64,000 nt of DNA, from contig NW_026889751.1 of assembly GCF_033153115.1 (NCBI RefSeq), forward strand, positions 1,488,001 to 1,552,000, read 5' to 3'. Under the pieces are notes generated by a model that had not been told where the DNA came from, made no database searches, and saw only the letters and a list, made by a program, of their open reading frames with translations. The first letter of the stretch is position 1. Every line of letters starts with the position of its first letter. Made by a program: the position numbers and the translations under genes. The stretch is from Saccostrea echinata (taxonomy: Eukaryota). Of the stretch, positions 1,402 to 61,499 are shown piece by piece.

Positions 1402-3252
1402 CTTAACATAGATAACAAGTTATTTCAGGAAATGTGTACATTACACAAAAATACATCATATTTTCCATATATCTATAAAATCTCTGATCAAAATTTTTTT
1501 TTTTAATCAATTAAATTATTTTTCCCACACAGAATGTATGGATTTTTTTCTGTTTCTGGCACTTTGTCATCTTAATTAACTTTTTCAATAAGACAATTAA
1601 ATGTCTTACTCATTGGATATATTAACCAGGGAAATTTTTTTGAATGCCTGAAACATATGTTTCGGGGAAAAACTGATTTTATAGACAAATTATTTTTGAA
1701 ATACATTCCAAATTTGTACTAGGACTCAACATTTAATTATGATACTGAAAGTTATATGTTGTGGAATTGTGTTGGGGGCTATATATATTCTGGCTATAAA
1801 AGAAAGATTTAATTCCCAGTTTTTTTTCTCATCTCTATCAATCATAAACTTGACAGAAACAAACCTACAGCTGATTAATTTAAAACAAAATCCCATGTAA
1901 CATTTTAGGTGGAAAATTAGGTGAGGTCACATTCCTTTATAGTCCTAACTTGTGTGATAGATACACATTCTTTCTTTAGGTGTGCATTCTTTCATGTACA
2001 CCATTCTTATATTTATGTAGGTACACATTTCATGTGATAATAATAGAAAAAAAATGGTTATTTTTGGTATCGTTCATAAAGATTTTCCCTCATAAAAATT
2101 ACCCATTTTACTCCCAGTTCCTATTGAGCTATCATTAGGAGCAGACCAGACGTCATTTGACACCAGTGATCTGACTCTGCATGATCAAACACAGAATTTA
2201 ACACTCAATTGAAAGCAAAATGCATTTCATTCTTTGTAAATTCAATGAACAATCTTCTTTTAAAAATCTTGTCAAAAGCAAACATGTTTCTCAGATGTGA
2301 AAACGCCCAAATATTATTGCATAAAAAATTGATTCAAAAGATCAACCCCATCCTAGTTGTACATGTAGTATGATAACATTCATAGGCATCATCGTGACAT
2401 TACATGTATGCCTGCAGTGTGAATTTAAATAACTCAGAATTTTTTTTTGAATCAAATATAATAACATAGGTTCATTCAATAAATCACTTTTGTATCAGAT
2501 TTCTTATCAACAGCCCTTCAAACTGAACAGTATTCTCACGGAAAATACTCAAGCACTTCTGCCCTCTGCAAAAAATAAGCACATTCTCAGAAAATCACTT
2601 TTGTCTTTATCAATTAATTCTTGTTGGATCATATCAAATTCAACACATCAAAATTACTATGCACCCAGATAGTAATAAAGGTATTTTAGTAAACTTCTGA
2701 TTTGTCGTTTTGTATACAGTTTATGTTTTATCCTTGATTAAACAGAGAAAATATGAGAACTTTCAGAAGCTAATTTTCATAGGTATTCTTGATGTTTATC
2801 AAAAATTACCTGTCAATTCTATACTTAAAAACAGGGGCAGGTTACTTTTCAACAATCAAGATAAGAAATCAGTAGCCTGAATGTATTAAACAGAGCTATC
2901 AAAATTATCAGCATGGAGATTTTCTTAAAGCTTAAACAACACAGAAAAAACATATACTCTGTGACTCTTATTGTCAAAAGTCACACTCGTCACTCAAATC
3001 AGGTCAAAAGGTCTGAGAATGCTAGCTATGTAAAAACAAAGTAGCCTTTGACTGAAAGGTCATTAAAAAGGAAACTGGATGAAATTAACACAGACTGTGT
3101 TTCAAGAACACTTTGATGTAAAATATTGCATTTCACACAGAAATCATCACCATAAAATACCAATTTTTTTAATGTTTGCCATTAACTCAAATAAAATATG
3201 ATCTAGAGGTGCCAAAAACTTCATTTGGATTATAATTGGATACACAAGGTAC

Positions 3253-3336
3253 CTGGTATTGCTTGATTCTATCCGAACACATCTTAGATTTGCATACAGG
3301 ACAGCAAGAATGAGGACCTCTTTCAATATACTGGCC
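3253..3336 (-). CDS. FRAS1: FRAS1-like coding exon 7 (84 nt, GQYIERGPHSCCPVCKSKMCSDRIKQYQ)
   Basis: TTAACTAG acceptor, CAG|GTACCT donor, CCPxC motif, in frame with both neighbours. Confidence 0.92.
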
Positions 3337-3819
3337 CTAGTTAAGAAAATTGAGCATTGGTACTTCTTTACATTTAATAACTGATACATTTTATGACATA
3401 AGTGATACAAAGGCATGATGTTTTTAATAGCAATTTTTTCACAATATACATGTTATCACTTTATTATGGCTTCAGTGATCTCACAAAAATTTAATGAATA
3501 ACATACAATGTATGTCCGAACCTCTTCCAAATGATGTACGTCAATCAAATTCAAATTTATGGCCAAAAACAACATTTAAAATCAAAACCATGACATATCA
3601 AAACTAGAGGTATTCATTTGTGATTAAAATTTATTCCCACATAGAAACAAACAAATTAAATTAACAGTTTATCGGCTTTTACCTTTGTTATTTAAAAAAC
3701 ATAATATTCACATCTTCTTTTCTATAAGGAATTTCATACTGGCATTTGAGCAAAACAAAGAAAACAAAATGTGATCCAGGTACTGGTAATAAGAATGCTT
3801 TAAATCTTGTGTCACCTAC

Positions 3820-3953
3820 CGGTGGACAAACAAGAGGGGGGCACTGTATCGGGAAACACGAGGCTGTTCCGTCTTGACACACACATTTTGTACAGGGAAG
3901 GGGAGACCACTCATGTCCATCATCATAAGTTACACCATCGACTAAGCACGAAC
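3820..3953 (-). CDS. FRAS1: FRAS1-like coding exon 6 (134 nt, SSCLVDGVTYDDGHEWSPLPCTKCVCQDGTASCFPIQCPPLVCPP)
   Basis: TTCTCAG acceptor, CCG|GTAGGT donor, phase 1 to 0. Lies inside ORF 3688..4026. Confidence 0.95.
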
Positions 3954-5229
3954 CTGAGAAATCAAATGAGATGAGCTTTACAAATATTAAAATTGGCAAA
4001 TAAAATGCATTGCATGTTAATATCATATCAAACTCTGAACTTTCATTGCTAGCTTTAGCATATATAGAATTAAAAATTGCAAAAAAAAGGTGTGTATACT
4101 GTATTTATAACGTCAGTCATTTTAAATGAAGAGAATGTATGTATAAATGGTGTCAAACTGCCTCATACTTGTTAAATTTCCACTTTCTGAGCAATTTCAC
4201 ACAGTTTAACACATAACTTATCACACTGTGTCAAAGGTATTTAGGTGGAAGTTTGACAATAGATTTAACTAGAAGGAAAAATTTAATTATTACAGTGTTT
4301 ACTGTGTAAAGTTATCTACAGATTTGAGTCATTTCTCAGTTTCTTTCTGTAAAAGTAATACTCAAGCCAATACATATTTTCAACAACAACAAAAAATTCA
4401 TGCGGTAAGCAAATATTTTAATTTTGCAAGTGATGAAAACTTCAGTTTCAAAAGGTACATTTACATGATCAACATGTCTTGATTACCAATAATAAAAATA
4501 TTCACAGTAAAGTGTAACCCCCCCCCTTTTTGAAGTTTATTATCACTTCTCTTACTCATGATTATACAATGATATTCTATGTATACATCACCATCACAAG
4601 AATTCAATTACTCAGTGCAGCATATGGATTGAAAAGGAAGTAAGAAAAGAACAGACTCCATGATTATGCACATGTATGGAAGCCAATCCAATCAATAATT
4701 AGTCACATCTTGATACATCTAACAAATTATTCCAAAATTATTCCAATTCATCCCTTCCTAATGACACATTAATGAAAAATCTGTCACTAATGTTGAAAGA
4801 TAACCTCTCTCTTCACAATATCAAGATGTCTAAAAGATAAAAGTATGAAAAGGGGGATTTCAGAATTGATTTGTAAGCCATATTGCATTAATACTTTATT
4901 CCTTAAACTTCATGTACTTGATATGAAATAGATGAATAATAAACATTAGGTAATCAAAGATTATGAAGCTCATCTCGATGAATGTTATCTATAATGCAAA
5001 GTCTTTTCCCAAATGATCTACTAATTACATGAACATTAAAGGCCCTTCTCTAGCCAACTAAAAATACAAGTCACTTGCTGCATCTTCAAAGCAAGAAAAA
5101 ATTAGTCAAGGCAAGGACAGAAGTGTGTATCTCTACATGAATTATCTATACAAGTTTAGTCAAGTTAGGACACAATTACTTTGGGTATCAATCTGCTCAA
5201 AAGAATTAAATCTGACCACTTAAAAAAAA

Positions 5230-6040
5230 AATAATGTAGATCAGTTGCAACAATGTCAAAAGATGCATCATACAATCAAGTTTGGTCCAGGTAAGGCTTA
5301 AAGTTACTTAGGGACCTGCTGCTCCAAAACCTTTAATCTGGTCACTCAGTGAAACATACAGGTCCAATGTAGCATCCAAAGCATGTCTGGTAGTGCGCAA
5401 CCCTAGTTACTTACAGCTTACTTGGGAATGGACCTGTTCTGAAAACTGTTCAATCACCTGGAAATAAATGTCAGATGCAGCATTCACAGTAGGTGAGTGT
5501 GCATCCCTAAATACAATATCCATGCAAGTTTGGATTAGGTAAGCCTTATATAGTTACTTGAGAATAAACCTAAACCTGTTCAATCATTTGGAAAATATCA
5601 GTCAGATGTGGCATCAGAAGTCAGGTAACGGTTGGCTTTATAGTGACTTCAGAATGAACCTGCCTCTATCCCCCAGAGAATGTAATTCAGATGCAGCACC
5701 TGAAGCTCCCAGGGTAGTGTGCACCCTTAGATGATCATCTGTGAAAGTTGGCTCCAGGTAGGCTTGGACCTGTTCCATAAACTTTTACCTGACCAATCAT
5801 CCAGAAAATAAAGGTCAGATCCAGCATCTGAAGCAAGTCTGGTGGTGTACATCCCTATATGCATCATTCCATGCAAGTTTGGTTCAAATATGATTACATT
5901 ACCTGGAAATGAACCTGATTCATAACATTTTACCTGGTTATTCACCAAAAAAAAAATAGATCAGATGCAGCACCAAAAGCAAGCAAGACTGAGTGCATCT
6001 CTAGATGCAGCATCCACTCAACTTTGGTAAAGGAGGGCTA
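5230..6040. repeat. Old degenerate tandem array (irregular ~90-145-bp units)
   Basis: Motifs TCAGATGCAGCA, GTGCATCCCTA and CATGCAAGTTTGG recur six or seven times with heavy divergence. Confidence 0.6.
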
Positions 6041-6871
6041 CAAGGCTTTGAATAAATATCTTGATTATGAACAACCACAGTATTATACTGCGTTAATAAT
6101 TTCAATAATTTCCCCATACCTATGTAAATAAACAATTAAAAATAAATAATGCTTAATATTAAATAAAGATTTAATAAAATAATATTCGATTTTGCAAGTG
6201 TTTTATGAGACATAAATCATCAAAATTTTGGCATGTATACAGCAATTATTTCGAAGGACATGAAGATTACTGAAGATTTTTTTTTTAAAAAAAAAAGAAC
6301 AATCTTCTCATAAATATCACACAACTAATACGATCACTCTTTTTTTTTTCATGCTTGTTGTGATATGATTGATTATGATAAATCTTCAAGTTTTATAAGG
6401 AATCTTTTCACTGTGAAAGACATGAAGAATTTGACAATTTGTTCCACCCTTGTCTGTGATAGAATGAAACAGAGGCACTTCTAGACAAGAGTGACCTAGT
6501 TACACATGTAAAAAGTTAAAAAATCAAATGGATCACACATCTTTCTGAACTATGCATGTCTACTGTGTCTGATGAAGGTAGAGCATGCAGAGTCATCTGC
6601 ATAAAGATTTTTTTAAAGTTTCAGTTTTGTTTGTTTGCTTGTTGTTTTGTCTTTTTTATTTAATTTTTTTTATGCTGATAGTAAATGTGGAAACCAAAGT
6701 ATGAAATTACAAGTAACATAAGATCTCAATTATAAGCCTAAACACTTCTGTACCAACATTTCCTTTAGTCCTAACTGCAAATTATTTTCAACAAATGGAT
6801 ACATTACATATCAATGTACACCAGTGACCTGTACGAAAATTGGATACACTGTATATAATTATATAACTTAC

Positions 6872-7031
6872 TTCCAGAGGCTATACACTGGGGGCAGCAT
6901 TGCCCGGGGAGGGTCTGGGCTACTGTCCCAGGTTTACAGTTCTGTCGGGGACAGGCTACGGCAGAACAAGTAACATCTCCATCCCAACACGTACAGTGAG
7001 AACAAGGATCGGGGTACCAGTCAGTGTTGTG
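6872..7031 (-). CDS. FRAS1: FRAS1-like coding exon 5 (160 nt, HNTDWYPDPCSHCTCWDGDVTCSAVACPRQNCKPGTVAQTLPGQCCPQCIASG)
   Basis: CTACAG acceptor, A|GTAAGT donor (phase 1). GC-rich island in AT-rich intron with a full VWC Cys pattern. Confidence 0.95.
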
Positions 7032-9181
7032 CTGTAGTCAGAACAATACACAATCATTAGCAAAACTTATAGGTTTTATTTTCAATATTATAACGAGATT
7101 GACTCGTAATCAAGGCCACTTGAACCCAATACTCTAGCAAACTTTAAATCACTTAACAGGCACATTGCTTTTCAAAAGGTGTAAGCCTAAAAAAGTAATG
7201 GACAAGGTACCTGAAAAAAAAATACAGGAAAAAAAGTAAAAAGAAAACTGTCCAATTTGAAAAATCTATTTTGTGTGTAGGTTGGGGAAAAAGAGGTTCC
7301 AACTGAATTCTACTGGTGTTACAGGAGGATGTAACATTATATACCAACATTTGACAAAACAACAAATTATGCAAATTCATTTCATATAATATTATGAATT
7401 AATCTTTTATGTAAAATTCAGAATTTTCCAAGGAGCATTTATTTGAAAATTTCAAAACTGAACATTTAAGGTTCATCTTCATGATTCAAGATCAAAACAG
7501 CACACCAATAGAGTTTGTATGGCTTACAAAAGGTTCCCTACTTCATATTAAAACATATTTAACAGTTGTGATATTTTTAATAAAGCATTTTAGTAGTTCT
7601 CTTGTACTTCTTCACGTAAGTGTTACACAGATACATTCTATATAAATACACTCATCTTGCATTAATGTTTTTTTAATGCCTTATAGCTCTTTAAATGGTC
7701 GATAAATGGTACATATTTAAGGATCAATTTACATTATTGTATAAATGACCCATGAATACAAATTCAAATTTCCTAGCCCATTATAATTTGATATCATTCA
7801 TAATAAATAGAAGTATTTAATAAAATCAATAAATCTTTTCTTAATATTCAAATTGTTCAGGAGCAGTGCCAAAAAGTTTCATATTTACTTGTGTCATTTT
7901 TCTACACTGACAAGTGATTTTGATATTTACAGAGAATATTGCAAACAATTCAGGAAAATATTTATTACACACTTCAAATTGTATTTGTATTTAAATTTTT
8001 GTACATTTCATAATAAAGTACATGTATAAAAATATCTGGAGATATTTACTGAAATAAAGCCTGTGTGTTATTGATTACTAATCAAGATTAAAAAAAAAAT
8101 AACAGTTCAGTTAAAAAATTAAACAGAAAACAAAAAAATATTTAGATACTTAAAAAAAAACTATAAAAATCTGTGACAATATCAGACAATTCAAACAAGA
8201 TTTCAAGAGCATGAAATTCCTTAGAATGACACTTCAATCTTGAAGAGCGATCATAGACAAACATTCAATAACAAATCGTGACATTTAAAATGACCCACAA
8301 AAGACTAAGTAAAGTGTCGGTACATACTTTAATATATCGTTATGTATTGCTGATTGCAAAGATTATATGCCTGGTATTTCAGAGTAAGTGCAGTTCTAGG
8401 TCCTGTATTTAGTTAGTACTCAGTGACAACACCTGTCACGTTTTATCTTTGATGTACGTTAAATCAGTTCAAACAAATTCACAATCATGAACCTGCCCTG
8501 TATGCACAAAATTTTTGACAAAAGTGTGGGTGGACAGGAATTTCTCTGCTATATTTACCATCAGATTGGAGATGTACTTGATTTTTCTGCACATTCGCTC
8601 ACATTATGTAATCATGAATTCAATAGAGGCATACTAAGTCCCATATCCAGGCTTTGGTTAAATAATTTATTGGTGTCAAAGGGTGGTGCCATTTTCACAA
8701 ATGTAATTTGCACATGTATAAAAAGATGGTCAGGGGATTTCACACATACGATATAAAATGTTTACTCAATCAAAGTGTATATTTATAGAAAATATAGGTG
8801 TACAGTGTATTCACACAATATTATTTGGGCTTTACATAAGAAAAATCACTTCTTTCTACAGGAAAATGCCATTTATAACATATTTAGTCCATTACATAGG
8901 ATACCCTTCCTATTTTAGGTGAAAAGTATATGAATTTACTTTGTAACTGCTAAATGAATATATATATATCCTTCATGCTTTCTATGCCTTTGAGAAAACT
9001 CATTGCAAAACTTGTGTTCTTGAAAAATTTAAATATTTTTCAATCATAATGGAAAAGTATAAAACATTATTATTAAATAACACAAAAACAAATTGCAAAA
9101 TTGTTTTTAAAAAATGCTTAAATCTGAAATCTACATTTTATCTACAATATAAAAAATATTTGGGGGAAAAAAGATACTTAC

Positions 9182-9271
9182 TGCGAAAGTTTTAGAGTCC
9201 TGACGGCAAGGGGCTAAAGTTCCCACACACTCAGGACAACATCCATCATGTGGAATCTGTAGATATTCCCC
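9182..9271 (-). CDS. FRAS1: FRAS1-like coding exon 4 (90 nt, GEYLQIPHDGCCPECVGTLAPCRQDSKTFA)
   Basis: TTTTCAG acceptor, GCA|GTAAGT donor. GExLQI...CCPECV matches the end of FRAS1 VWC1. Confidence 0.93.
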
Positions 9272-9857
9272 CTGAAAAAGATAAAATCATCCAAATGTTA
9301 ATAAGTACTCTAGGGTATCTACTGTGTAACTGATTCTAATGTAAATGTTCAAGACTCTCAATTGTCTATATTTGGGGCCGTTCAAAGGCCCCATTCCCAA
9401 TTCAAAAAAGGTACCTTTTTCCCCAGCTGAATGTGTTAATTTTCCCAATACATGTAGTCATTTTCCACTAATATTAAAGAATGCATAATTGGATATATAA
9501 TAACAACACCTGCTTCTCACTATATAGGTGTAATTATATGGCTAAAGTGCATCTATCATGATACACTGGGGATGTATCATGATATAAATCATGAAATTTT
9601 ACCTTTCATACTTTTAATGTGATTTGTAGGTCTCTGTAACTTCCTTTAACAATGTGAAAGGATAAAACTTGTAGATTATTTCATCAAGTTCACAAATACA
9701 TTTATGTAACATTTAATAAGCTCTGAAAACAATAAAAACATCATAAGTAAGTAAGGAAAATCACTTTTATCAGGTATATTTAAAAAGAAATAACAAAAAT
9801 TATATGGATTTTGTACCACAATGCAGTAAAATTTTTGGGTGTATTGCAGTACATGTA

Positions 9858-10051
9858 CTGTAAACCAACTTTTAATTGCATGCAAGAAATATCTGTGAGT
9901 TTCACGACCTACTTTACTCATGAATATTAATCGCCGCAAACTTCTTTTGCTTTGCATTTGAAGAGAATGTTTCCTCAGTCATGAAAATTAATCGTGATTT
10001 CAAACTGATGAATCCGAATAAAAGATGATGCAAATAATAGTTGGTTTACAG
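9858..10051. mobile_element. MITE with TA target duplication (Tc1/mariner-like)
   Basis: Perfect 13-bp TIR CTGTAAACCAACT/AGTTGGTTTACAG, flanked by TA on both sides. Confidence 0.85.
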
Positions 10052-11799
10052 TATACCTATACATGTATATTGTATATCATTGCATCCCTATACTTTTGAA
10101 TCTCACATTCTTCTGCATTGCATATCAGAAATTTAGCTGATAAAAAACACCAAAAGCCCAATATACAATGATTTTAATGTAAAAATGATTTCCAAAAAAT
10201 TCCCACAAAAGTCACCAATTTTCCAAACTTTTATGGCCCTTCCCCCTTCCCAAATAGTGGTGTGAGAGCCCTAACCTCTTGTCTGAGTACGTATATACCA
10301 AATGAGGACAGTGAGAAAACTGCGAAAGAAATATTAAGAGATATATTTTTGATAAACATACATGTATCTTGAGATACACAAAAATAGAAAACAATATTCC
10401 CTATGATTCTTTGGCCTTGATGTAGGTAGATTACCTAAAAAGTACATGACTTTCACAAATCTCTGAGGAGAACATCTGCTTACTTCATGACCTCTGATTT
10501 CTAAATATGATAAGTTATGAAGTAAATCATTTGTAACACCCCAAATTTATGTGACTCACAGGCCACCAACCTAGAATCATTCAATGCCCCAATCATATCA
10601 GTAACAGATGAATTGCATCCTTTATTGAAATATCATTTCCTATATGATTTGTCATCTGTCAAATCTAAACTGTAATGGAATCATAAATGCACACTAATCT
10701 CACATCAGATTGATACACACCCGGTATAAATTACTAAATATATAGTAAGCCAACAAATATTTACTAAAAGCTATCAAAATGATACTTTTAACAATTTTGG
10801 GATAAACAGTAGTTTACAAGCTTTAGGGAATTCTGAGATTATAATCACAGAGTGTATACGCATACAGCATCATTAATCACTAGCAAGATTTTTAACTGCC
10901 AGCATTGTGACATGATTGCTTTAATTTTATGTGAGCCATAAATCTTAAATATGATCTCTTCTGCCTGAGGTGAAATGGCAACATTTGACTCGAACTGTGA
11001 GGCTCCCTTGCATCAGAGGAACAATAGAAAAGGTGCAACATGATTTTGAATCTGCTGGAATCATGTCATAGCAATACATCACACAGAGAAGGTAATACAC
11101 AGTGGTCAGGCAGCCATGGGGATTACTTTACACCTGTATTTAATCGTTACCTGACACAGGTGTGAGAGTGTAAATGATCAAAGGAATTCTAGGCTGTTCC
11201 GAAACATCTTACCTATGACTTCACTGATGAACTTACATGACATTTGTCTGTGGGGAGTTAAGTTTAAAAGAGGTTTTTTTTAATACATGTATAAAGAAAT
11301 GAAGTAACCCCCTGAACACTTTTACATATATACTTTTTAGCCACAGGCCTGACAGAATAAAAATTTCAAATTCTACCTTAGACTAATGAGACAGGAAAGC
11401 TTTGACACATTGTCATGATAGATCATTTACCATCCAAAAGAATTTACAAAATTTAATTATTAAATGGAAATGTCGTAAAAAAAATCATGTACATGTAGCC
11501 ATGTATGTGGTATTTTTAATACATTTATTAATAAATACAATTCCACAAAACTGAGAAATATACATGCATATTTTCTCCAAGGTAATGAATGCATAATTAG
11601 TGTACACTAGCCAAAAAGAAACCATGAACTTGTGTAAATCATTTAAATTTGAATTTATTTCCATAAACATCTGAATAATTTTAAATTAACAACACAGTCT
11701 GCTACTTCTTCATTGAGTATCATTATTATACAGTAAATACTAAATGTAGCATAAAATACATTACACAAAGTGGCTTAAATTGGTGCCTGTATAGCTCAC

Positions 11800-11907
11800 C
11801 TTTGCATAGAAACAGTTTGGATTCAGGCAGCGGACGTTTTCACAAACAGACACAGGGTCCAGACAGGTACAGATAGTACAGAGGTCCGGCAACCAGAGTG
11901 TGTGATT
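11800..11907 (-). CDS. FRAS1: FRAS1-like coding exon 3 (108 nt, NHTLWLPDLCTICTCLDPVSVCENVRCLNPNCFYAK)
   Basis: CCTTCAG acceptor, AAG|GTGAGC donor. W-x-P-D-x-C-x2-C-x-C VWC motif closely resembling vertebrate FRAS1 VWC1 (from recall). Confidence 0.92.
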
Positions 11908-12809
11908 CTGAAGGATAAAAACATTGGTTAGCACTAGTACAGAGGTCTGACAACCAGAGTGTGTGATTCTGAAGGATAAAAACAAGATTTATTGCAATCA
12001 GAATAAAACTGTAGGAGGAGTAGCCTTTTAAAATAATTTTACAGAAATTTCTATTTAAGTAACCATGGCAACATCATTCAACAAAATCAAAAAGCAATAA
12101 TGACAATTATGTATATCATTGTAGTCTACTTGTATGCCAAGTTATACTGAAATCAGACAAATCATGTAGGAGGAGTAGCGTTTTGAAAGTATTTCAAGAA
12201 AATTTCTATTTTTAGTAACCATGGCAACACTTTTCATCGAAATCCAAAACTGGTAGAGAGAATTATGTATCTTAGTGTAGTCTACTTGTGTGCCAAGTTA
12301 TAATGAAATAAGATCAAAACTGTAGGAGGAGTAGCATTTTGAAAGTTTTTTTACAGAAATTTCTACTCTTAGTAACCATGGCAACACTGTTCATTGAAAT
12401 CAAAAACCGATATATAGAATTATGTATCTTTGTATAGTCTACTTGTGTGCCAAGTTATACTGATATCAGACCAAAACTGTAGGAGGAGTAGCATTTTGAA
12501 AGTTTTTCACAGAAATTTCTATTTTTAGTAACCATGGCAACACCGTTCATTGAAATCAAAAACCGATATACAGAATTATGTATCTTAGTGTAGTCTACTT
12601 GTGTGCCAAGTTATATTGAAATCAGACCAAAACTGTAGGAGGAGTAGTGTTTTGAAAAATTGTTTACAGACGGACGGACAGACAGATGGACGGATGATGG
12701 ACACCTTACTATCGCATAAGCTCTTCTGGTCTCTGACCAGTAGAGCTAAAAACATTGGTTAGCACTAGTACAGAGGTCCGGCAACCAGTGTGTGATTCTA
12801 AAGATAAAA
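11875..12809. repeat. Three copies of a 61-bp unit spanning the exon 3 acceptor, split by a Helentron insertion
   Basis: TAGTACAGAGGTC..CAACCAGAGTGTGTGATTCTGAAGGATAAAA at ~11875, ~11936 and (with a 2-nt deletion) ~12766. Confidence 0.9.
11981..12750 (-). mobile_element. Non-autonomous Helentron/CvA-pearl-like element with ~156-bp tandem array
   Basis: GTAGGAGGAGTAG recurs at 12011, 12166, 12322, 12479 and 12635. (GACG/GACA) microsatellite and terminal hairpin AGCTC..CTGGTC-TCT-GACCAG..GAGCT. Inserted in an A/T run with no TSD. Strand is relative only. Confidence 0.8.
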
Positions 12810-12964
12810 TTATCAGTTAGCATGTACTCTTTCTTTTATAAGTTTTTCATTCTATACAATATGATATACAATGTACAAGTATATAATATATATTATAATG
12901 AATAAGATGTAAGCTGCATTTAGAACTACATGTACTTTTTATTGGTTTTATATATTTACAACTA

Positions 12965-13138
12965 CAGTTGAACTTCGGTATCTCGAACACTGATATCTCG
13001 AATACCATGGATATGTCGCAGTGATTTGGAAGTCCCAACTACTTATTCTGTAAGTATTTTACCCTCGATATCTTGAATCCTCTGATATCTTGATGTTTTC
13101 CTCGGTCCCATCGAGTTCCAGATAATGAGGTTTGACTG
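12965..13138. mobile_element. Tc1/mariner (pogo/Tigger-like) MITE
   Basis: TA-CAGT...ACTG-TA termini with imperfect ~24-bp TIR (CAGTTGAACTTCGGTATCTCGAAC vs CAGTCAAACCTCATTATCTGGAAC). Confidence 0.85.
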
Positions 13139-49735: not shown

Positions 49736-50415
49736 AGCTGCAGAGTTGTAGCTCGAATTCGAACAGACAAACCAAAGAACTACAGATCCAAGCATTGTAA
49801 AAAAAAACTCCAATATACGGCGCTGCTTTTTTGTCGTTAGCTTCGGATTATAAGTGTTCCCCGTTAAAAACACGGTATCCACATAAATAAATCATATATT
49901 TTATTCCTAATCCTAATACTTTATTTACCACCTTTCGACGGTTCCGAACAGCCCTATGTTGCCTTGGAATATCAGTCTAAAAAAAAAAAAATCGCATTCC
50001 GACTTCCATGTTGAGGTCGTGCTTAAATACATCTGTTGAAGAACATACACATGCCAAGAAAATGTAAATATTTTTTTTTGGGGGGGGGGGGGGGAGGGTT
50101 CAAATATCATCTATATCGTCTATGAAATATAACCTATCGTTGGGTCGTATATGACTTACTTTTCCTAACAATTTTTATACCATTTCATCGTCGGATACCC
50201 ACTGATGATCTCATCTTTTACTCATCATGATGAGTAAAAGACAAGATCACCCGTATATATATATGACGTATATATATGACGTATATATATGACGAATGAC
50301 AATTTGTTAGATAAAAAACCTTCTGAACTCGCTCATCAAAAATGAAACAAATAAACTATAATGTGTATACATATTTCAAAAACAGGAAGGACATGCTAAA
50401 TGGAATATTCTGTTT

Positions 50416-50715
50416 CTGTAGATAAGAAATTTGATGCAACTTTTCGAATATGCAGAAAAGTTTGAAAAAAGAATTTTTAAGTTGATGGAAATAGTAATAT
50501 TCCTTATTTTACGCCAGTATTTATAAGATATTATTTAAAGGTTCTTAGATGTCAAATAGACGACAGAACAATAATTCGCGAGTGGACCTTTGATCAAGAG
50601 ATTTTACATGATTTTAGCACTATGTAAATAAATGCGAGTAATTTTATTTCGCGAGTGATGCTTCTTGCAAAATTAAGCGACAATTGATTCCTCGCGTACA
50701 TTTAGTTATCTACAG
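50416..50715. mobile_element. Degenerate MITE related in design to 9858-10051
   Basis: CTGTAGATAA ... TTATCTACAG-TA termini and internal TTCGCGAG repeats. Confidence 0.55.
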
Positions 50716-52986
50716 TAGTGAAAAATTTCAGAATGTCTGTAGAAACAATCTACCCAAAATGCAACCTGCCAGCATTTCAATGGCTTTGACAGACATCCGA
50801 ATGAGTTCTCAGACTATGATTACTTTGTTCCCCACCGGAACTAGAATTCTAGAGTCAGTTGCAAAAATTTTACAGTTTGGCGAGGACATTATAACCATAC
50901 TCATAAGCTTGTCTCAAAGAAGGTTAGGAACGAAGAAGATAAGATACACTGTATTAGAATTTTTAATGTATGACTAACTTGGCTCCAGATAGGTCTTACA
51001 ATCTCTGCAAGCAGCTCAATAGATACATGCAAACAATTGCCTTGCTAGATGTCCATGAGTAAATAAAGACAAATTTCAAAGATACGTAACCAACGTCCCA
51101 TCCTGTTGCTTGATTAAATGTTGCTGTTTTTGTGTCTTGCAATAAATCTTGATTTTCTAATTGTTGTTTTTATGAATGGCCCACGTATTTTGGTTCCGTT
51201 ACAATATTAAGGTCACTACGACGACTCTATGTTTCTGTAGAGGAGTATCTCTATAGTACAAAATGATAGAGTACTAATTTTCAAACAATTTGTGTGGAAG
51301 ATAATGTTTTTGCAAAGTTCATTTTTCAAGCCATCATTTTTTTTATACAATTTACGAAATTATGGCTTGATAAGACCGCAGGTTTCCAGCTATTATAAAG
51401 CTTTTCTACATTTTTGTCTAAACCCCCCCCCCCCCCCCCCCCCGCCATATAATTTCTTTTTTAAATAACTTTGCAAAAATTTATAAATTAGCCACACCTT
51501 CTGACGCCCTGGCAACTTAAGTTTACATAACTAGAACAATTAATATTGGTTTCTATAATGTCCGAAATGATATTAAATTTTAAAGGTAATAGTTAAAATT
51601 AAATTACTGTTGAAATATAATGACCTTGAAAAAAGAGTTATGAATGTTTATTAACTTCAAACTTTCAGAACAGTTAGATGTGGCATTATTCTAAAAGAAA
51701 AAGATAATAAACAACTGTCCTACAAAAATCCCTTGTTTATTTACCACAAAATACTTGTGATTGTTTTCAGACGGATGTGATTGAATACACGTGTCTGGTC
51801 TCTAAATAGAAGTGAATTGATCTTGGCGTTATGTTACTGAAAGGATTAGGTCATCAATATTCTGTATCTATGAAATATGGAAATGACGTTGTCACGTGAG
51901 AATTACCATTTAAGATCCCAAATCATGAATATCTATGGATCAGTTTCATTTAGAAAGCTAGTGATTAATGTAGTATTATTCCAAAACAGGTAAGTTCTGT
52001 ATAATGTATTAGTATTCAATAATTTTTATTGATTATGGAAACAGTTTTTATTGTTGTTGTGACAAAGTTAAGCTTTGATTTCAAAAGAGCCGTAGCCATT
52101 CTTTTACCAGGTAAATTTAAAGGTTAAAAGCACATGAAAGGCTTTCTTAGGGCCATAGTTGGAATTATCTACAAACGCTTGGCCAAAATTCCGTTTTAAA
52201 CATTTTGTAAGAAAAAGTAGTTAAAAATATATGCAAGATGTCATATTTATTCCAAGTTCTATCTAATCATTATCTTGTATTTAATGTTTACTAATCCAGC
52301 ATACTTTTCTCTTGAGAACATGAAAAAGACTAAGCCCCTAAAGATCTCGAATATCATACATGTATTTACTCCCTAAACAAAATGAATTTTTAAAAAAGTT
52401 ACAAAAGTTTTATGATTTACTTTCTGGCTAGTTAATACTTTTTAGCATTAACTACATCATGCAAAAATGTTAATAATGAAGAAACTTTTTTGAAAGAAGC
52501 GTAATTATACTTGATTTACAGCACTAAAAATTTTTACTTAAACCACAGACAATCTGAAATCCATTTACTTACAATATACAGCCAGTGATGCGCAAGAAAA
52601 GCTTTAATGTACAAAGAATGGCTTTGCGCTGATGAAGTAAGAAAATGGAACGTGCAAGACCATATGCTACGATGCAAATAATGAATCTAACTTGTGAAAA
52701 TAAACATCTTTAATAAAAACAAATTACCATCATACCATGATAAAAAAAAAAATTAACATAAAGTCATAAAAGTGAACAAAATAAAAAATAATAAATTAGA
52801 GATAGGAATAATGGATTACATATTAACATCTTGTTGTTAGATATTGGCTTTCTGTATAGAATTTCCTTCAATGGATTAGCCTGTATAGGATTATGTTGGT
52901 GGATTATGTATATTGTTTAGTGCATACTAGAAGAAGTGAATATTCCTGGATGAAATTAGTTTAATTTCGTAAGTTTTACGGTGGAT

Positions 52987-53286
52987 ACAATGACCTTGTC
53001 AGCACATACAACCTATCATTAAGTCAAATGCTGACCGATGTTTTTCATACTAATTGTTAGGACATTACTTATGCACTGAACTGTCTACGGATTTTTCCGG
53101 GGTTTTTTTCCCGATCATGACAAGGAGCACACGGCGGGTGTGGCCGGTTGGCAGGGGATGCTCACTCATCCATGGCACCTGATCCTACCTCTAAATTTTG
53201 AGGTCCGTGTTTGCTCTGCTCCAAATTTGCATCGTTTCATTGGACTTTCGAGATTGAATACTGTTTGTTATCTTCATATTTCATTT
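52987..53286 (+). mobile_element. Penelope-like 3' end (last RT codons plus terminal module)
   Basis: NDLVSTYNLSLSQMLTDVFHTNC* followed by CACGGCGGGTGT...CCGTGTTTGCTC...TTATCTTCATATTTCAT. Confidence 0.85.
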
Positions 53287-53409
53287 TGTACTGTTCGTAA
53301 AAAATGATAGTTTTTATCAATTATATTACAAGAGAGTTTTTTTTATCATTGCATCCTCTGTATTGCATTTAATTGTATTGCTCTTACGTACTGTGTTCGA
53401 AATAACATT

Positions 53410-54790
53410 TAATTGCTCTGAGAAAGACTCCAACCTTTAAGAAGATATCCAAGTTGAAGCAGGCAGAAATAACACTGGGTTAAGAAGTAACTCCTCTCGT
53501 TCAAAATTGTATGAGGAATGGGGTAGGGATCTTCTACGACCAAGGAGTAAGGTTCATACGTTGATATAATTTTATAGAATAATAAACCATGGCTATTCAC
53601 CTCAATATTTGCATGATTTGATTTAACCTTTTCGCCCATCAAATCATTCCTATAACCTCAGAGCCAATGATGCACAATTCAAAATTCCTCACATTAGAAC
53701 TATATCAGAAGTACATCTTTTATGGAAAGTTTTCTTCCATCAACAATTAACTGAAATATCTTCATTCAAGAGTCTTTTGAATTCTTATTTTTGTTAGGAA
53801 AAAAAAGCCAATGAACTTTTTCATTTTGGAATAAGAAAATACAACATAATACATTGTCGGTTAAGGAATAATGAAAGTAATTTGATGGCAGACTTGTATG
53901 ACCAATGTTTATCAGAAACGCCAATGTGTGAACACTGTACTGATGCTTATACTCTATTTTTTTGCTTGTCCAAATATACAATTTCTAGATATGTACGTTT
54001 TCAAACAATACAAAATATTATTGATTGTGATCATATCTCTGAACTTTATACATTTATTGACTGAGTTCGAGGGCAATATGCGTTTTGTCAGACCCCAATA
54101 ACCAAACTATTTGCCTAAAGCCGTTAGGCCGAAGGCAAACAGTTTGGTTCGAGGGGTCGACAAAACGCATTTTGCCCTAGAACACAGTCAATAAATGTTT
54201 TGTTATACCTTTTATTTAATTTTATGTTTTGACATAATTGTATCTTGTATCTGTCACTTTCGAACACCAACGAATGCAAATGAGATTTAGCTGATCCCGC
54301 CCACATTGTGACGTAAGCGGTCGACAAGTCCAATATCTCACTCTGCGGTCAAACATCGATGATGACCGCTCAGCAATTGCAAAATATTGGAAGTGTTTGG
54401 CTTTTTTTTTTAGTATAGATTTATATAGGAACTAATTTTTAAAGGTATAACAAGAATTATTATTTTATGGTAGTCCGGATCATGGACTCAAAATTAATAT
54501 TCAAATATTTGAAGCAGTACATGCATATATAGCAGCAACAAAACATTCTATTTAAAAAATATGTAACTTTTGTCAGTATTTCAAAACTGGTACTTCTCTA
54601 TTTTTTCCTTCTCTTTTGTTGTCACCCTTTTCACAATGTTTGTTTAATAAATTAATGTTATACTTACAGTGTATATTCATATTGACCTTTTTGTGGGTAG
54701 AGCTCTAAAATAGATAAAAATCATTATGTCTGCTTCTCAATCTCATTCACTTTTTATGAATAAAATTACGTATGTAAATAAAAAAAAATA
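53410..54790 (+). mobile_element. 3' part of a CR1-group LINE, interrupted at ~54050-54453
   Basis: Decayed YNLRAND..KIPHIRT and IIHCRLRNNESNLMADLY..CEHC..KY, resuming after the insert with ELLFYGSPDH..NIQIFEAVHAYI. AATAAA and A-rich tail near 54760-54790. Confidence 0.8.
54050..54453. mobile_element. Fold-back element with two consecutive inverted-repeat pairs (possibly non-autonomous Crypton-like)
   Basis: ~66-bp imperfect arms 54050-54116/54133-54198, then TTGTTATACCTTT (54200)/AAAGGTATAACAA (54441). Its position inside a LINE reading frame shows it is an insertion. Confidence 0.7.
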
Positions 54791-57700
54791 ACTATATGTT
54801 ATCATGAGCAATGTTGCAATTGCTGGCATTTTCTATATGTCGGCATATTGTGCCCCTTTTTGTTTAGGTTGTTTTCCGTTCATTCACTTCCGAGTCACTA
54901 ATGTGTAGCTACAATACACCTCCCGTGCAAGAATATGTATAAACAAAAAAAGTCAGGAACTTTCATAAAATACACCAGAATAGTCAAGTTCTTTTATGAT
55001 GTAGATTCAGAGACGGAATATTTTTCATGCTTTACATACATCTGTTTTATAGGGGACAAAAGTCAATTCTAGTGAATTTTAAAGATTTTATCAAATGTTG
55101 ATGAATTCCTTTTCTTTAGTGAAGATAAGTATGTAACAGCAAGCTAAGAAGTTTTATTCTGTCTGAAGAAGAACAAACTAGTTCAGAAGAAAGAATAAAA
55201 CTCCAAGTTTTAGCAAAAGTTTAGATGTTTCATTTTATTGCCCTATCATTGTAATAGGGAGGTATCCGTTCGAGGTGCTTACTTTCTCAAAATCGTAAAA
55301 GATTCATTTTATGCCCCATATCTGTACAATTACAAATTCAATCCAAATAATACATCTATCCAGAATTTAGTAAAGGTACGAAGCAGACAAGTAAGCGTCT
55401 CGTGTAAAACATTACATCAAATTGATAAAATGTATCGCTTGAATTTCCTCTGCTTTTATTTATGTTTCAATATCAAGAAAAGGTCTGTGAATAGTGGATC
55501 AGTAATATCTGGATAGCAAAGAAATGCCTCTTTCATTAATAAACAAGCTCTGCGTTACCATTTACCATGTTTAAGCCACAAAAAATTGTTACTTCCATAT
55601 TAGTGTAATAAAATGCTTTAAAGCATCTCTAATTTGATTTGATTTTAACACATTTTATTTTGTAATTTAAAAAAATGGATTGGGCAGCAGGCTTTGCTCA
55701 GATAAGCCCTGTCCATAAATCTCTAAATGTTTCATTTCGCCAAATCAATTAGCATTTAACTAAGTTGACAATAATAATTATCTTATTTGAAGGGCATATT
55801 TTTCCAAATACTCATGTGGTATTTCTATGCATTGATTTTAATTTTAAATCAATATGATTTTTTCTGGAAAAATTATCTATTAAATCATCCTCAAGGGCGA
55901 TCATCAAGTGATCAATTGGATTTCAAAATATGAAGTTGATGTCTGTCTATTGTATGAAATTGCTAGTTATTTTGATTCACTTAGAAAACACGGATTGTCT
56001 ATTAAACTGATCAAATTTAAATTGTAAATAATTTTTGTCGATTAATCAATCTTGGTCACTATATAATCAGACTTTACTACATAAACGAAGACAACTTGTA
56101 TGAAATGACACGTGTAAAAAAGAGAACACCCGATCACATTAATATTTACACGTTCTAATAAATGAACAAAGTCTCCATTATAACTTTTAATTTCGAAAAT
56201 GTTTAGACATATCTGGATGGTATAATGCCTTATTTCTTAAAGGGTTACTGGCCTCTTTTTCTCTTGCTAAGATTATGTCAGCATTTAAGAAATGCTGGCA
56301 AAGAAAACAAAAATCATGCATACTTGGTCGCAGCAAATCGTGAGTATGGTCGTTGAAGAATTGGACGACAATGCTTGTAGACAGCTATTAGATAAGCTTC
56401 ATGATCAGCAAACTTGACCATATTCAAATCTTCATGCACAATAAGCAAAATAGCGAGTTATATTTCTTTAGAGAAGTTTATAATTAAATCAGATTCATAG
56501 CTACTTGTAATCGATTGTTGTAATAGTATCATTAATTTCGGACCATATAGAAGAAGGGGGAAAAGGATTTCTGAGCAGCTCTTCATTATTCCATGTGGTT
56601 TTGAAGTTCTATCAAGTGAAGATTAATATATCTAATTAACGTTTACATACAATCACTCGGGAATCGATTTCCTTTGCTGGCCCTTAAATGACCTCAAAAT
56701 ATGAAATAGCCCCTATGTGTATCTGTATCTCCATTTTATTTTATAGTTATGCAGATATGAAATCCATCGTTAATGTAGTATAAAAGGTGCTGATTCCCAT
56801 GGCCCAGTATTTTCAGTTTCAGAGATTGCCTTTTTTAAAAATAGTAATACAGATATGCAATACATCGTAAATGTACTGCAAAAAATAGTTAATTTTCAAG
56901 GCCCAACATTTCATATTAAGAGTTGGCTACATTTACTTTCTTTTAATGCTCCATCACTTTCATGTAACACGTCATTGCTAAAGGTCACAAATAAACCAAC
57001 CAGCTGTTTGCAATTTTTACCAACAGTAATATTAATAGACGATCAAAGTAATTCAGGGAGTAATAAATGTGTAATTAACTCATTTTTTTTTTATTTTTGT
57101 TAAAAAAAATATCTCCAATGTTGTAGAAAATACTTAAATCTCCAGCTTAAATTTGACGTATCTTATTTTATTATTGTCGCAGCAATTTGTTTTATAATAT
57201 TTGAATTTAAAAGAACGAATCTGTTGTGTTTTGTCAGTAGTAAGCCCCACAAGAGTAGCCGGCACTGATAGACATGTTAGAACAATTATTAGGAAAAAGA
57301 CAGTACAATCTGTCAGCCTCCCAAACCGCTTATAAAATGATCACAGAGGCACTCATCAAAAGGCACGTGTAGTTATCATGAAAAACCCCGTGCTTATCGC
57401 CAGCTTTGATAATGGCTACTTATTCATATAAGTATCTCCTACGACGGACACGATGAATGAAGAGGACTTCGGCTGTCAGTCCCGGCGACGTAAAAGATAA
57501 CACTAAATGACAAAAGCTCCGCGTTAGAAGCTTATTGTTGTTCAAACTCTGGACATTTTGGGTTGCTTTTATGTAGAACTGATAAAAAAGCGAGCTGTTA
57601 TGTTGTGATTCGAAAGATAAATCTGAGCATCATTTGAATGAATTGACAATGAACGTGATTGGATGATAGTATCGGTAGTAACAAACTGTTGGGGCAAACG

Positions 57701-59026
57701 TTATTGAACTTATTAACAGTGATAGGCTGTTCAAAGAATTTTATATCTGATCATTTGTTTTCATTTTGACTTACTTTCATTTCTACCGCCCATTTGGTAT
57801 AAATCTCAATCAATACCTAACTCATATCCGTGCATTTCTCAAAAGGCGCTGCCATGTCACAGGGAATCGGTAATCACAACGAATGTGCTGGGGTATATGG
57901 AATTTTCGACGGTGGAAACAATAGATGCTGCAAATAATTTTTTTACTTTTTTAATATACTTGTGTTTTCCCCCCAATTTTTCACTTCGAAAATTTTTTTT
58001 TCTAGCTAAGGTCAACAGATTTTGGAACTAATTACAGAAACAGCATGAGGAAAGAACTTTATAGCTTAGAAATTGTTGCAATCTTAATCTATAAACACTG
58101 AATCAATAACGCCCTCCACAGGTAATTTTCTTGACTAACATAGCAAAAGTAATCTTAAACGAACTCAGTTATAATCCACAATCGACGCGAAGCAAATTTG
58201 GATGGAAAATAAGATGAATTTAGAAGAGTATCTGAAGTTTTCCTTACTAAATATCTCCGCATTTCAAGTCAAGTCGCTGTGCGCTACATGCTAAGTAAAC
58301 GTTTCTTCTGAACAACTATAAATAAAACTTTATCATGAAATGATAATTAAGTTATGTAAACTAAAGATGAAATGTAAAAATTTATCATGTTTGAATATTT
58401 TATTTCTTAGGATATTTTAATTAGGTGAAAATCTAATAACATATTGGAGATGCCGATACAAATTATTTCATATGAATATACTAAGTACTTCATTTACATA
58501 GAAGCCTTATCCAGATTGTCAGAAGAACGTATAATGCTTAAAAATATTGAGTTTCCAGCGAATTGCCAAGTAATGATATATAATTGTTGTTAAGTTTTGA
58601 AACTTAAGTATAGAACATATTGATTTATCAGATGAATTCTTCTTGCAGGCAGGATCTCTCATGCAATCTTAAACATTTCTTATTCAAACATATATATCAA
58701 TATGAAGAACACACCCTGTACGACACGTTATATCTCGTAAAGTATGCACTGTATAAACATTCCTTCAAACTGGTTATTATCATAATGCTCTGGAACTATA
58801 ACTATTTACCAAAGTTTGTTATCCGTCTACACCAAGCTTTACATAAATAAATAATTCTATACAAAATTACATTGTCAGTTTTTGATGAAAGAAATATAGC
58901 ATTGTGCGTTCTATTCCAAGAAATGTCACTTAAAATATATTTATTGATGTCAATATTTATTCTGATATTAAAATGTTAATAAATATATATACGATACTGT
59001 TAAACCCATTTGCTTGAGGATATATA

Positions 59027-60640
59027 CGAGGGTTGATTCTAAAGTAATGTCATAACTGATAAAGAATTTTTGATAATGGAATTTTTCATTATAATACCCG
59101 TACATTAGTGTTAAATCCAGACCCTAAAAAGGGCATGGTAATCCAGTAATCAAAAGGGCACTTTACGCCGCGACAAGTTTTCATGAGGGCACTTTTTTAA
59201 CGTCTTTGAAATTATAAATATTTTCTTATCATGTTTATGTACTTAAATTATTATTTAATACTGAAATCTTTAGTTATACAAGTATCTAAAAGAAAAATTT
59301 ATAAATCTGTCAGCTTAATTCATTTAATACACACTGAGAGGGCAATTATTGCCAAAACTGAAATTCAAATTTTTTAATCAAGAAATTAGTATGGTTATCA
59401 AGGTTATGCTTAAAAAGTAATAGGTGTGAATATTTTTGTCACTTGCTCAAGAATTATTTTAGTCTGGGGTATGATTTTTTCCCCTTGCTTTAATATTGTT
59501 ATTTGTGTATGAGGTAAATAACAGAACAAAATTGCAAAGGGGGGGGGGGCTTCTTGGATAATAAATGTAGAGGGCATTCTCTTTATTTTGAAAATAATCT
59601 ATCAACAAAATCAAGTGAAAACTGATTATACCAAAAAATTAAACTTGAAATAATATATAAATTGGTTAAAACTTTTTTTCTGGCTTAGAAACATTGAGCC
59701 TCTGGGTGTCAAATCAAAAAGTAGAACACAGAATCATTGAACATGTTGAAAGAAACTAACTTCATACTTTGTTGTTTCCTAGCCCATTTCACACATAATA
59801 TTCAGGGTTTTTTGGTACTGTACATTGTAAGTTGACTTAATTCATCAGCAGTTTTATTTTTCACATTTCTTCATCAACTCTGTTTTTCTACTTTCAATTT
59901 AAAAAGAAACGATCCTGATTTAAAATGTGTAACATTTTAATTTACAAATTAATCTATCTTTGACACTGGGCTAATTCTTGCATAATCAATGCAATCAAAT
60001 GATATTTTCTCGTGTTATCTCTTGTACCCTAACAGCCTGAGGCATGTTACCTGGCCAGGTGGCTGTGTGCGTTCAAGCGAGAAGTGATTTCCTGTCCTGA
60101 ATTCACACCTTTGCGTGCATTAAATAAACAAAGGGGCAAATCAGCATGCACTGAATAAACAAAGCCGCTAGTCCATCTTGCCTCTGCTAGGCATATTTAT
60201 ATATTTTTGCAAGGAAAAAAGGGCATGGCGCTGGAAAAAAGGGCATGGCGCCGAGAGAAAAGGGCATGGCGCCGCGCCATGCTAGTTTGCTTTAGATTTA
60301 ACACTACGTACATGTATCTATTTTGATTTTTGCCTTAAAATTTCATACAGTTAAATCGAACACTTTTAGAAATATCAAGATAAACACAGCGTTACTTTTG
60401 TCGGCAAGAACGGTAGAATGAAAACGACGTCATTATGATGTTGCTTTTAGACACTCATTTTCAGTTCATCCGCAACACTTTTATACTCCCACTTGCTTCT
60501 TTTTAATAATCTTTATTGCCATATTGCTATGAAGCGTCTTGTTTTGAGTTGAAATTATTCGAACTCTGAGCAAGTGTTTGTTTCCTAATTCATTCCTATT
60601 GCATAGATCTTATGTATCGTCAGATTCAGGAGTAAGTGAC
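59027..60640. mobile_element. Second copy of the 43106 mariner-like MITE, interrupted by an hAT-like element and truncated
   Basis: TA-CGAGGGTTGAT start; 60314-60620 aligns to 43180-43330 and to the reverse complement of 43340-43520. Confidence 0.75.
59106..60306. mobile_element. hAT-like non-autonomous element, 1.2 kb
   Basis: TIR TAGTGTTAAATC/GATTTAACACTA, flanking direct repeat CGTACAT, and AAAAGGGCA(TGG) subterminal repeats at both ends. Confidence 0.85.
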
Positions 60641-61499
60641 GTTAAAGGTTGACCGATCGTCCACTCACTTCCTCCTTCCTCAGATGAAAAGTTTGTTAAC
60701 CTGACTTAACACAAGTCTTGAAGTATTAATACTAATAAGGAAAATAGTAAACACAATACATGTATTAAAGATACAAAAGTTGCATATATAAGATACGAAT
60801 GTAAATGGAAGTCATAAGATAAACAGATGCTAGGAAGAAGAAAGTGCGTGGAGGATGAGCATTTCAGTCACTTTCTATTAAATTCGACGCTACACTAGAT
60901 CTAAATGTGCACACAGCGAATTGAATATTCAAATAGAATATGGAGTTAAAATATTTTTTTTATGAAATAGTTCAAAACTAGACGCTCCAGCATAATTGAG
61001 AGTGTAAACGTATGTGTGAGAGATTTAATAGATATATTAGTATGGATGAATGACTAGAGTGTTGAAGGAACGCATGCGTCGCCTGCTTTGTAGCTTCATT
61101 AAAGGTGTAAATAAATCTAAGAGTGGTCAACTTTTTATTTACTATTAGCATGATAGTTCATGCATTTGCCTGCAAAGAAAAAATGGCATCCATGGATAGA
61201 ATAAGACCGTGATAGAAACTGACAATCAAAGAAAATATGGTTCACTAACCCACAAATAAATAATTGAATTGAAATTCTTAGAAATAACTATCATTTTATT
61301 AATACGTGTTTCCAACAATCCTCCAAAAGAGATTTGAGTTTGTCTTTACTGAAATTGTAAGTCTACACGATCCATTGTGGAATACCGATTCCGATGTATT
61401 TTCATGGTATTTAAATATCAGATTTTGTTGTAACTGAATATACACTTTCAAAGTACAGAATCATGAGCTCATAAACATGTAAAAATGCTAATTATCAAA

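Follow-up and report, generated by a model that had tools for sequence, protein, structure and literature searches.

The word TACATGTA is about ninefold over-represented in oyster DNA and probably represents an excision footprint of a TA-targeting transposon

Excision of the transposon Tc1 in Caenorhabditis elegans leaves a footprint at the TA target of the element, reportedly described by Eide and Anderson in 1988. The broken ends carry two-nucleotide (2-nt) 3' overhangs which do not pair with each other (PMC4490562). In the unc-22(st192) set, which comprises 26 footprints and in which deletions and templated inserts are common (PMC4490562), the word TACATGTA is footprint L and was recovered from 24/103 wild-type, 10/36 lig-4 and 3/39 polq-1 revertants (PMC4490562 Suppl. 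Data 3). Repair in the worm germline is varied and mostly mediated by Pol theta (PMC4490562, PMC13148408), and non-homologous end joining in the soma has been contrasted with homologous recombination and theta-mediated end joining in the germline (PMC13148408). Elsewhere the Tc1 footprint taCATGta was called rare (PMC3520976). Here we report that the same word is about ninefold too frequent in a stretch of 64,000 nt from the oyster Saccostrea echinata (NCBI RefSeq assembly GCF_033153115.1, contig NW_026889751.1, positions 1,488,001 to 1,552,000), which carries part of a FRAS1-like gene and is called the window below.

The oyster word shares the spelling TA-CA-TG-TA and the TA target with the footprint of Tc1, a CA-ended element with 2-nt 3' overhangs. 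In contrast to the varied worm repertoire it is dominant among the visible scars, with an excess of about 0.35 copies per kb. The type of scar is known; what is unusual here is how densely and uniformly it is spread genome-wide. Sleeping Beauty (SB), Frog Prince and ZB also leave element-end bases between two TAs and prefer AT-palindromic targets; these elements leave 0-3 end bases (2-4 in the superfamily), whereas the oyster scar keeps the bases of both ends (PMC7913693). In Phytophthora TACATGTA is promoter motif-1 and highly abundant in non-coding DNA (PMC3520976, PMC11134190), with one tabulated instance in the tandem form acatgTACATGTA (PMC3520976), a form that is present in the oyster too. 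There the word was read as a transcription-factor site and a Tc1 footprint was dismissed (PMC3520976), whereas in the oyster paralogues indicate an insertion. A report of a TACATGTA scar in molluscs, or of its genome-wide dominance there, was not found in a literature search which covered subscription papers thinly, and an earlier mention is possible. ITm elements of oysters were reportedly treated by Puzakov in 2018. TA-targeting ITm elements of many kinds, among them pogo/Fot1-like ones, are present in the Pacific oyster (PMC7325037); these families are possible donors, and PMC7325037, in its accessible parts, describes elements and ties no family to a scar.

The window contains 24 exact copies of TACATGTA (Table 1), which represent 23 separate events because the copies at 43529 and 43535 form a single TACATGTACATGTA run. 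An initial annotation of the window had listed 23 positions; the word is present at 23/23 of them, and the additional copy at 28271 had been overlooked. At a GC content of 33.4% a zero-order model predicts 2.4 copies, in line with the 2-3 estimated in that annotation. Markov models trained with the motif left in the sequence predicted 1.9-4.4 copies at orders 1-4 and 13-19 copies at orders 5-6. The expectation climbs at the higher orders because these models learn the motif itself. When its core was masked during training, 1.9-3.1 copies were expected at every order from 1 to 6, and a Markov artefact was rejected as the cause of the excess, which persisted under every background tried. When tandem arrays were masked, 24 copies stood against 2.56 expected (p 8e-16), and TACATGTA ranked first of the 256 palindromic 8-mers and first of all TA-N4-TA words. 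The flanks of the sites are unrelated, by which an origin as a piece of a single repeat family was rejected. The events showed modest clustering, nine of them lying inside one 6-kb stretch (permutation p 0.014).

The same excess was found in a control set of 79 loci (274 kb) from two metagenome assemblies, which had been recruited by a Helentron end. These contigs probably belong to another oyster; for one of them the nearest named oyster proteins were those of Crassostrea virginica (76%) and Saccostrea (65-66%). The 79 independent contigs contained 94 copies vs 10.2 expected, of which one assembly contributed 70 (vs 8.0) and the other 24 (vs 2.2). After masking of sequence under at least three alignments, and with locus L035 dropped as a near-duplicate of L022, the window and the loci together comprised 290 kb with 112 copies vs 11.8 expected. 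The near-allelic pair L022/L035 (93% identity over 1,375 bp) says nothing on the motif because neither copy carries it. Within this otherwise near-identical pair a 130-bp patch of low identity (L022:350-480 vs L035:190-310) resembles a conversion tract or an old haplotype block. A search of viral contigs for the Helentron pattern gave 0 matches.

The polarity of the events was determined by comparison with paralogues. Of 115 motif events in all, 9 had an alignable paralogue, and 8 of these 9 are insertions of CATGTA (+6, once +12), the remaining one being uninformative. Five of the eight are clean transitions from TA to scar in which the TA was duplicated, and three are consistent in length. 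The scar at 28271 is a clean +6 at a TA relative to a Helentron copy at ~62.7 kb. The run at 43529-43542 is a clean +12 at one TA and is missing from the left arm of foldback A as well as from copy B. Both pieces of copy B map onto the same single TA of foldback copy A, and CGTACAT is duplicated on either side of the hAT-like element at 59106-60306 which splits copy B. Thus, the scar at 60309 is +6 and predates this element. hAT elements usually duplicate 8 bp; the CGTACAT match comprises 7 bp. In the control set, the scars L019:1686 and L068:3944 (locus and position) are clean +6 events at different TAs of one satellite monomer. Three further scars (L015:532, L015:3830 and L039:7058) have the +6 length together with 1-2 substitutions nearby. 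Because a recent duplicate also carries L047:3019, the polarity of this event cannot be read. The flank of the homologue lacks the CATG in all five clean cases. Therefore, the filler is not locally derived, and together with the duplicated TA this points to a TA-targeting transposon as the donor. Judging from these alignments TACATGTA arises by insertion, and the 6-bp insertion signature postulated in the initial annotation is borne out in 8/8 informative events. A sequence-blind tally of 64 six-base gap events gave TACATGTA as the sole recurrent TA-N4-TA product (3/64), and neither TACATA nor TACAGTA was present among 145 four-base and 56 five-base gap events. The unpolarised gap-length spectrum had no 6-bp peak, with 56 events at 5 bp, 64 at 6 bp and 67 at 7 bp; satellite slippage dominates this spectrum, which served for the sequence tally only.

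These alignments bear on the possibility that TACATGTA is a selected transcription-factor site, bound by an Irx homeodomain or the BEN domain of NACC1, or that it arose by substitution or CpG decay. The word is cited as an Irx homeodomain site and is abundant in Phytophthora promoters (PMC3520976), the NACC1 BEN domain was crystallised on TTTACATGTAA (PMC11472053), and the cluster of nine events falls into the 5' introns of the FRAS1-like gene. A selected site is expected to align without gaps, whereas all eight informative events are insertions, several of them within satellite or foldback repeats where a function is unlikely. Moreover, the density in unique sequence (0.68 per kb in introns vs 0.33 per kb between genes, 13 vs 9 copies) did not differ significantly (p 0.13). 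CpG decay of TACGCGTA predicts equal enrichment of the double-decay words TATGCATA and TACACATA. They reached 15 vs 10.0 (1.5-fold) and 19 vs 20.2 (0.94-fold), respectively, as compared to 9.5-fold for TACATGTA. Consequently, CpG decay was rejected. Neither of the two outcomes which the initial annotation had named as able to overturn its proposal, an origin by substitution such as CpG decay or an excess lost under a Markov background, was observed. An origin of the word by selection or substitution is extremely unlikely. Some scars may have been co-opted later.

We consider TACATGTA to be, with good probability, the germline-repaired excision footprint of a TA-targeting Tc1/mariner/pogo element with CA..TG ends. 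Such an element would insert at a TA and duplicate it. On excision the transposase would cut two bases inside each end and leave TA-CA on both broken ends. Oyster germ cells would then retain both overhangs, fill them in and blunt-join them head to head to yield TA-CA|TG-TA. About one quarter as often the joint would receive one extra base, resulting in TACA-N-TGTA; TACAGTGTA would be consistent with templating of a third base from a CAG end. The two new TAs of the scar would invite further hits, giving rise to +12 runs, compound words, and scars carrying a miniature inverted-repeat transposable element (MITE) or the hAT-like element. The specific family and the repair pathway are what we infer from the footprint, and the true repair spectrum may be wider because precise and deletion repairs are invisible to word counts. 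Thus, of the cut-and-paste turnover proposed in the initial annotation the insertion signature stands, and excision as its cause is presumed as the best reading.

Words with a single extra base were in excess at the central CA|TG position (38 vs 12.3, p 3e-9) and amounted to 21 vs 17.1, 26 vs 20.9 and 7 vs 8.9 at the other three positions. This excess at the centre only is a statistical indication of a joint between the retained bases, and it favours the joining of two CA overhangs head to head. The window alone holds nine TACA-N-TGTA words (Table 1), and at L005:2715 such a word was +7 in one alignment, which did not reappear when the flanks were widened. A different behaviour would be expected of an element whose ends are palindromic CATG. 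After a 4-nt staggered cut, as in Minos-like excision, its sticky ends would religate to TACATGTA every time, which would account for one dominant product and for the missing +4 and +5 scars described below. The centre of the word would then be no joint, yet the extra bases gather exactly there. Furthermore, TACATG outside the motif showed no surplus (46 copies, 49 expected), and a TA-CATG-ended element was present in none of the scans. We regard this variant as highly improbable.

Enrichment, mild for the CC- and CT-type sister words, was also seen for related words. The TA-C..G-TA class without the motif was found 111 times vs 57 expected, while other classes reached 1.07-1.16-fold; taken with the CA, CT, CC and CG starts of the TA-flanked elements described below, this likewise favours head-to-head joining. 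Among the sister words TACCGGTA (6 vs 1.7) and TACTAGTA (9 vs 3.2), both members of that class, and TACCGGGTA (5 vs 0.5) were enriched, and TACCCGGTA at L048:796 is a +7 insertion relative to 5/5 best homologues when one adjacent substitution is allowed. Mutation without any transposon, either by slippage in alternating purine-pyrimidine DNA or by a repair polymerase that adds CA at a TA break, might produce such words as well. Some enrichment was likewise seen for TATATATA and for palindromes of the TA-N4-TA type overall (81 vs 36; 1.2-1.3-fold for non-C palindromes), therefore part of the excess of minor words may be generic, and in the +12 runs the second CATGTA could be a product of slippage. 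Against this origin, the filler copies no flanking sequence in the five clean cases, the TA is duplicated every time, and the preference for the C..G class over the others matches element ends. An enzyme with a specific CA-adding activity is not known to us. A transposon-independent origin is very unlikely.

Under excision of a transposon the scar itself offers new targets. CATG abuts the motif at 9/236 flanks vs 1.1 expected, and seven words are chained. Scars appear to be reused: the MITE at 9856-10053 sits on the last TA of the motif at 9850, a shared TA which the initial annotation had already noticed and which was verified, and the hAT-like element landed in the scar at 60309. This reuse, including the abutting CATG and the chained words, also favours the head-to-head reading. 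The scar at 9850 presumably served as the landing site of the MITE. Since this MITE has CT..AG ends it cannot supply CATG, and it was rejected as a scar donor. The region 9850-10067 is a hotspot in which the motif, the MITE, TACCTA and, within 6 bp, a second motif follow each other; with the MITE removed it reads as a chain of TA-bounded words. The flanks of the 115 events showed a purine at -1 (p 0.002) and an A at -3 (p 0.007), and TTAA was avoided (4 vs 13.5). The direction of this bias, which is weak and uneven between the data sets, agrees with the target consensuses of Tc1, SB and Minos (PMC2577343 Table 1).

TA-flanked inverted-repeat elements with CA, CC, CT and CG starts were detected by a scan that catches only fairly intact elements below 2.5-3.5 kb. 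The filler of the scar hence occurs as the terminal bases of resident TA elements, a result that concerns the existence of such ends and not their abundance. CA-type elements are the MITE at 12963-13140 and a CAG-ended element at L005:988 of the control set. Excision of an element with CAG..CTG ends of the 12963-13140 type would leave TACATGTA. A further copy of this MITE was not found in 338 kb. No transposase was found in the window, for which long open reading frames (ORFs) were listed and five were scanned. In the control set L019:330-1230 contains a decayed remnant of a pogo/Tigger-type transposase (DDE_1, Pfam E 3.6e-5), which is interrupted by a Helentron-like satellite array and whose ends were not found within the 1,300 bases inspected.

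Several observations weigh against excision as the origin of the word. An excess of about 100 scars stands against only about 2 CA-ended TA elements in 338 kb. Elements with CT, CC and CG ends, of which 3, 1 and 2 were detected, are equally common, and the scars predicted for them are about 15-fold rarer; therefore scar abundance does not track the resident MITEs. A flank-pair search with 9 testable events revealed no paralogue bearing an element at a scar site. Shorter scars are expected from related elements, +4 TACATA from Tc1 and +5 TACAGTA from Sleeping Beauty. In the window they showed no clear enrichment (70 vs 73 and 18 vs 13, respectively), and a count of 75 vs 61.4 for TACAGTA (p 0.05) indicates at most a weak one. 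TACGCGTA was unenriched (1 vs 1.0), and palindromic CC and CT sister words were found 0 times in the masked window with 1.0 expected. TACCGGTA at L008:4042 and TACTAGTA at 31773 of the window align gap-free. The polarity of TACA-N-TGTA is mixed, with L047:2480 aligning without a gap and 54665 of the window showing no insertion relative to its one homologue. The purine bias at -1 had p 0.003 in the window and p 0.10 in the contigs alone, and the bias at -3 was significant in the contigs only. The worm revertants were selected in frame and their figures therefore favour +6. Finally, the polarity was read from paralogues of 66-86% identity, not from alleles, and covers 9 of the 115 events, leaving 106/115 without a test.

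The imbalance between scars and donors could also be explained by a hit-and-run process, in which a Tc1/mariner-type or domesticated transposase joins a CA-ended donor to TA and the insertion is removed at once or within a few generations. The chemistry would be the same and the population dynamics different, so that scars vastly outnumber residents. In favour of this process are the ~100 excess scars vs ~2 intact CA-ended elements in ~290-340 kb, the discrepancy between scar and MITE abundance by end type, and the lack of an element-bearing paralogue at any tested site. However, ordinary cut-and-paste transposition at constant copy number would also pile up permanent scars during turnover, and the scan for elements covered little sequence under strict criteria. 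We consider hit-and-run transposition unlikely, and ordinary excision in the germline the probable source of the scars.

The initial annotation had regarded the words as a possible fossil archive which accumulates with age and is absent from the four Helentrons and the hAT element. This was not confirmed. One of the Helentron-like elements harbours the copy at 28271. Too few copies for significance were missing from the four Helentrons (1 copy vs 2.8 by TA share), from the same four together with the hAT-like element (1 copy, 3.2 expected, p 0.15) and from repeats in general (3/23 events, p 0.11). Variants with a decayed TA flank were counted 136 times vs 118 expected, which is 0.18 +/- 0.12 of the exact excess, and core variants 201 times vs ~129, which is 0.72 of it. 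These counts fit scars that are young or steadily renewed, together with variant primary scars, and no old archive is apparent. Likewise, the proposed supply of dipeptides to proteins found no support. TACATGTA was absent from the 999 bp of mapped FRAS1-like exons (0 copies), and ORFs of at least 180 codons in the control contigs contained 0 copies in 12,978 bp vs 3.3 expected. This suggests that scars are removed from coding DNA. In non-coding DNA they are likely near-neutral.

The features of the window are summarised in Table 1. The FRAS1-like gene is encoded on the minus strand, and its introns hold 13/24 copies of TACATGTA, the number given in the initial annotation. The start of the exon at 11907 is duplicated together with its flank (11874-11984 and 12747-12822); the two copies bracket a 156-bp satellite element at 11984-12730 and include a partial exon copy at ~12767-12814. 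The four elements with 168-bp arrays, which we take to be Helentrons, are 66-86% identical in their common non-array part. A perfect 49-bp hairpin with a 5-nt loop at 27290-27392 lies directly upstream of the one at 27.5 kb. TA-flanked inverted ends starting with CGAAAG, about 3 kb apart (22260-25299), enclose the Helentron at 23.3-24.8 kb, and similar ends are present at L009:1739-3045, too. They likely belong to a family of TA-targeting elements with CG ends, into whose copy at 22260-25299 a Helentron is nested. Decayed copies of one repeat family were found at 41068-41795, with related pieces at 35159-37139, 49318-49737 and 52964-53303. Its two ORF remnants presumably resemble a Penelope-type reverse transcriptase; a Pfam scan of them gave no match. 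Homogeneous minisatellites are located at 31307-32253 (49-bp unit, 19 copies, 91%) and 38974-39185 (24-bp unit, 9 copies, 95%).

Table 1. Copies of TACATGTA and associated features in the window (positions count from its first letter)
Feature	Position	Strand	Remark
FRAS1-like gene, 5' part	832..21079	-	ten exon blocks, close match to Saccostrea echinata P0001 residues 1-324
TACATGTA	2360..2367	.	FRAS1-like intron 1405-3252; without paralogue
TACATGTA	2401..2408	.	FRAS1-like intron 1405-3252; without paralogue
Nine TACA-N-TGTA words	3504, 6845, 8801, 12867, 13577, 43075, 50945, 54665, 59821 (3504..59829)	.	2.2 expected
TACATGTA	8019..8026	.	FRAS1-like intron 7038-9179; without paralogue
TACATGTA	9449..9456	.	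FRAS1-like intron 9274-11799, which holds 6 copies in 2.5 kb
TACATGTA	9850..9857	.	ends in the TA that forms the left target of a CT..AG-ended MITE
MITE, TA-flanked	9856..10053	.	26-bp inverted ends, 92% complementary, CTG..CAG
TACATGTA	10060..10067	.	6 bp past right TA of the MITE 9856-10053
TACATGTA	10359..10366	.	intron
TACATGTA	11284..11291	.	intron
TACATGTA	11490..11497	.	CATG immediately before
TACAATGTACAAGTA	12867..12881	.	two variant scar words with a common TA; presumably a compound scar
TACATGTA	12927..12934	.	intron 11908-20217
MITE, TA-flanked, CAG..CTG ends	12963..13140	.	18/24 terminal bases complementary
TACATGTA	13699..13706	.	intron
TACATGTA	18446..18453	.	intron
TACATGTA	19661..19668	.	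intron; CATG immediately before
TACATGTA	26313..26320	.	outside FRAS1-like gene
Helentron-like element with 168-bp internal tandem array	27497..30770	+	hosts the scar at 28271
TACATGTA	28271..28278	.	inside Helentron-like element 27497-30770; +6 at TA
TACATGTA	37597..37604	.	outside FRAS1-like gene
TACATGTA	40252..40259	.	outside FRAS1-like gene
TACATGTA	42522..42529	.	outside FRAS1-like gene
Foldback element A, long imperfect inverted arms	43112..43735	.	
TACATGTACATGTA	43529..43542	.	right arm of foldback A; two CATGTA units at one TA
TACATGTA	44142..44149	.	outside FRAS1-like gene
TACATGTA	52357..52364	.	outside FRAS1-like gene
hAT-like element (the hAT of the initial annotation), 12-bp perfect inverted ends	59106..60306	.	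splits foldback copy B
TACATGTA	60309..60316	.	foldback copy B (pieces 59025-59105 and 60307-60617)
TACATGTA	60757..60764	.	outside FRAS1-like gene

Excision footprints are usually studied locus by locus and have been deemed too varied for counting. With one dominant scar in excess by about a copy per 3 kb, past cut-and-paste activity could be measured directly from any assembly, independently of surviving elements, and such a scar would reveal the end-joining route used by oyster germ cells. Oyster genomes comprise several hundred Mb; if the density holds genome-wide, roughly 10^5 or more scars would be present. Caution is required when non-coding DNA of molluscs is searched for motifs, as TACATGTA will turn up there because of mutation and not because of regulation. 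The published Phytophthora promoter element thereby receives a testable alternative origin. It is tentatively conceivable that oysters carry a genome-wide, sequence-specific signature of about 10^5 near-identical exit scars per genome, made by fill-in end-joining in the germline, tens-fold more numerous than their donors and still forming, whose spelling records the cut ends. Each scar would at the same time be a ready-made Irx- or BEN-type word, so that excision might mass-produce candidate regulatory sites, and the TACATGTA of Phytophthora effector promoters may share this origin.

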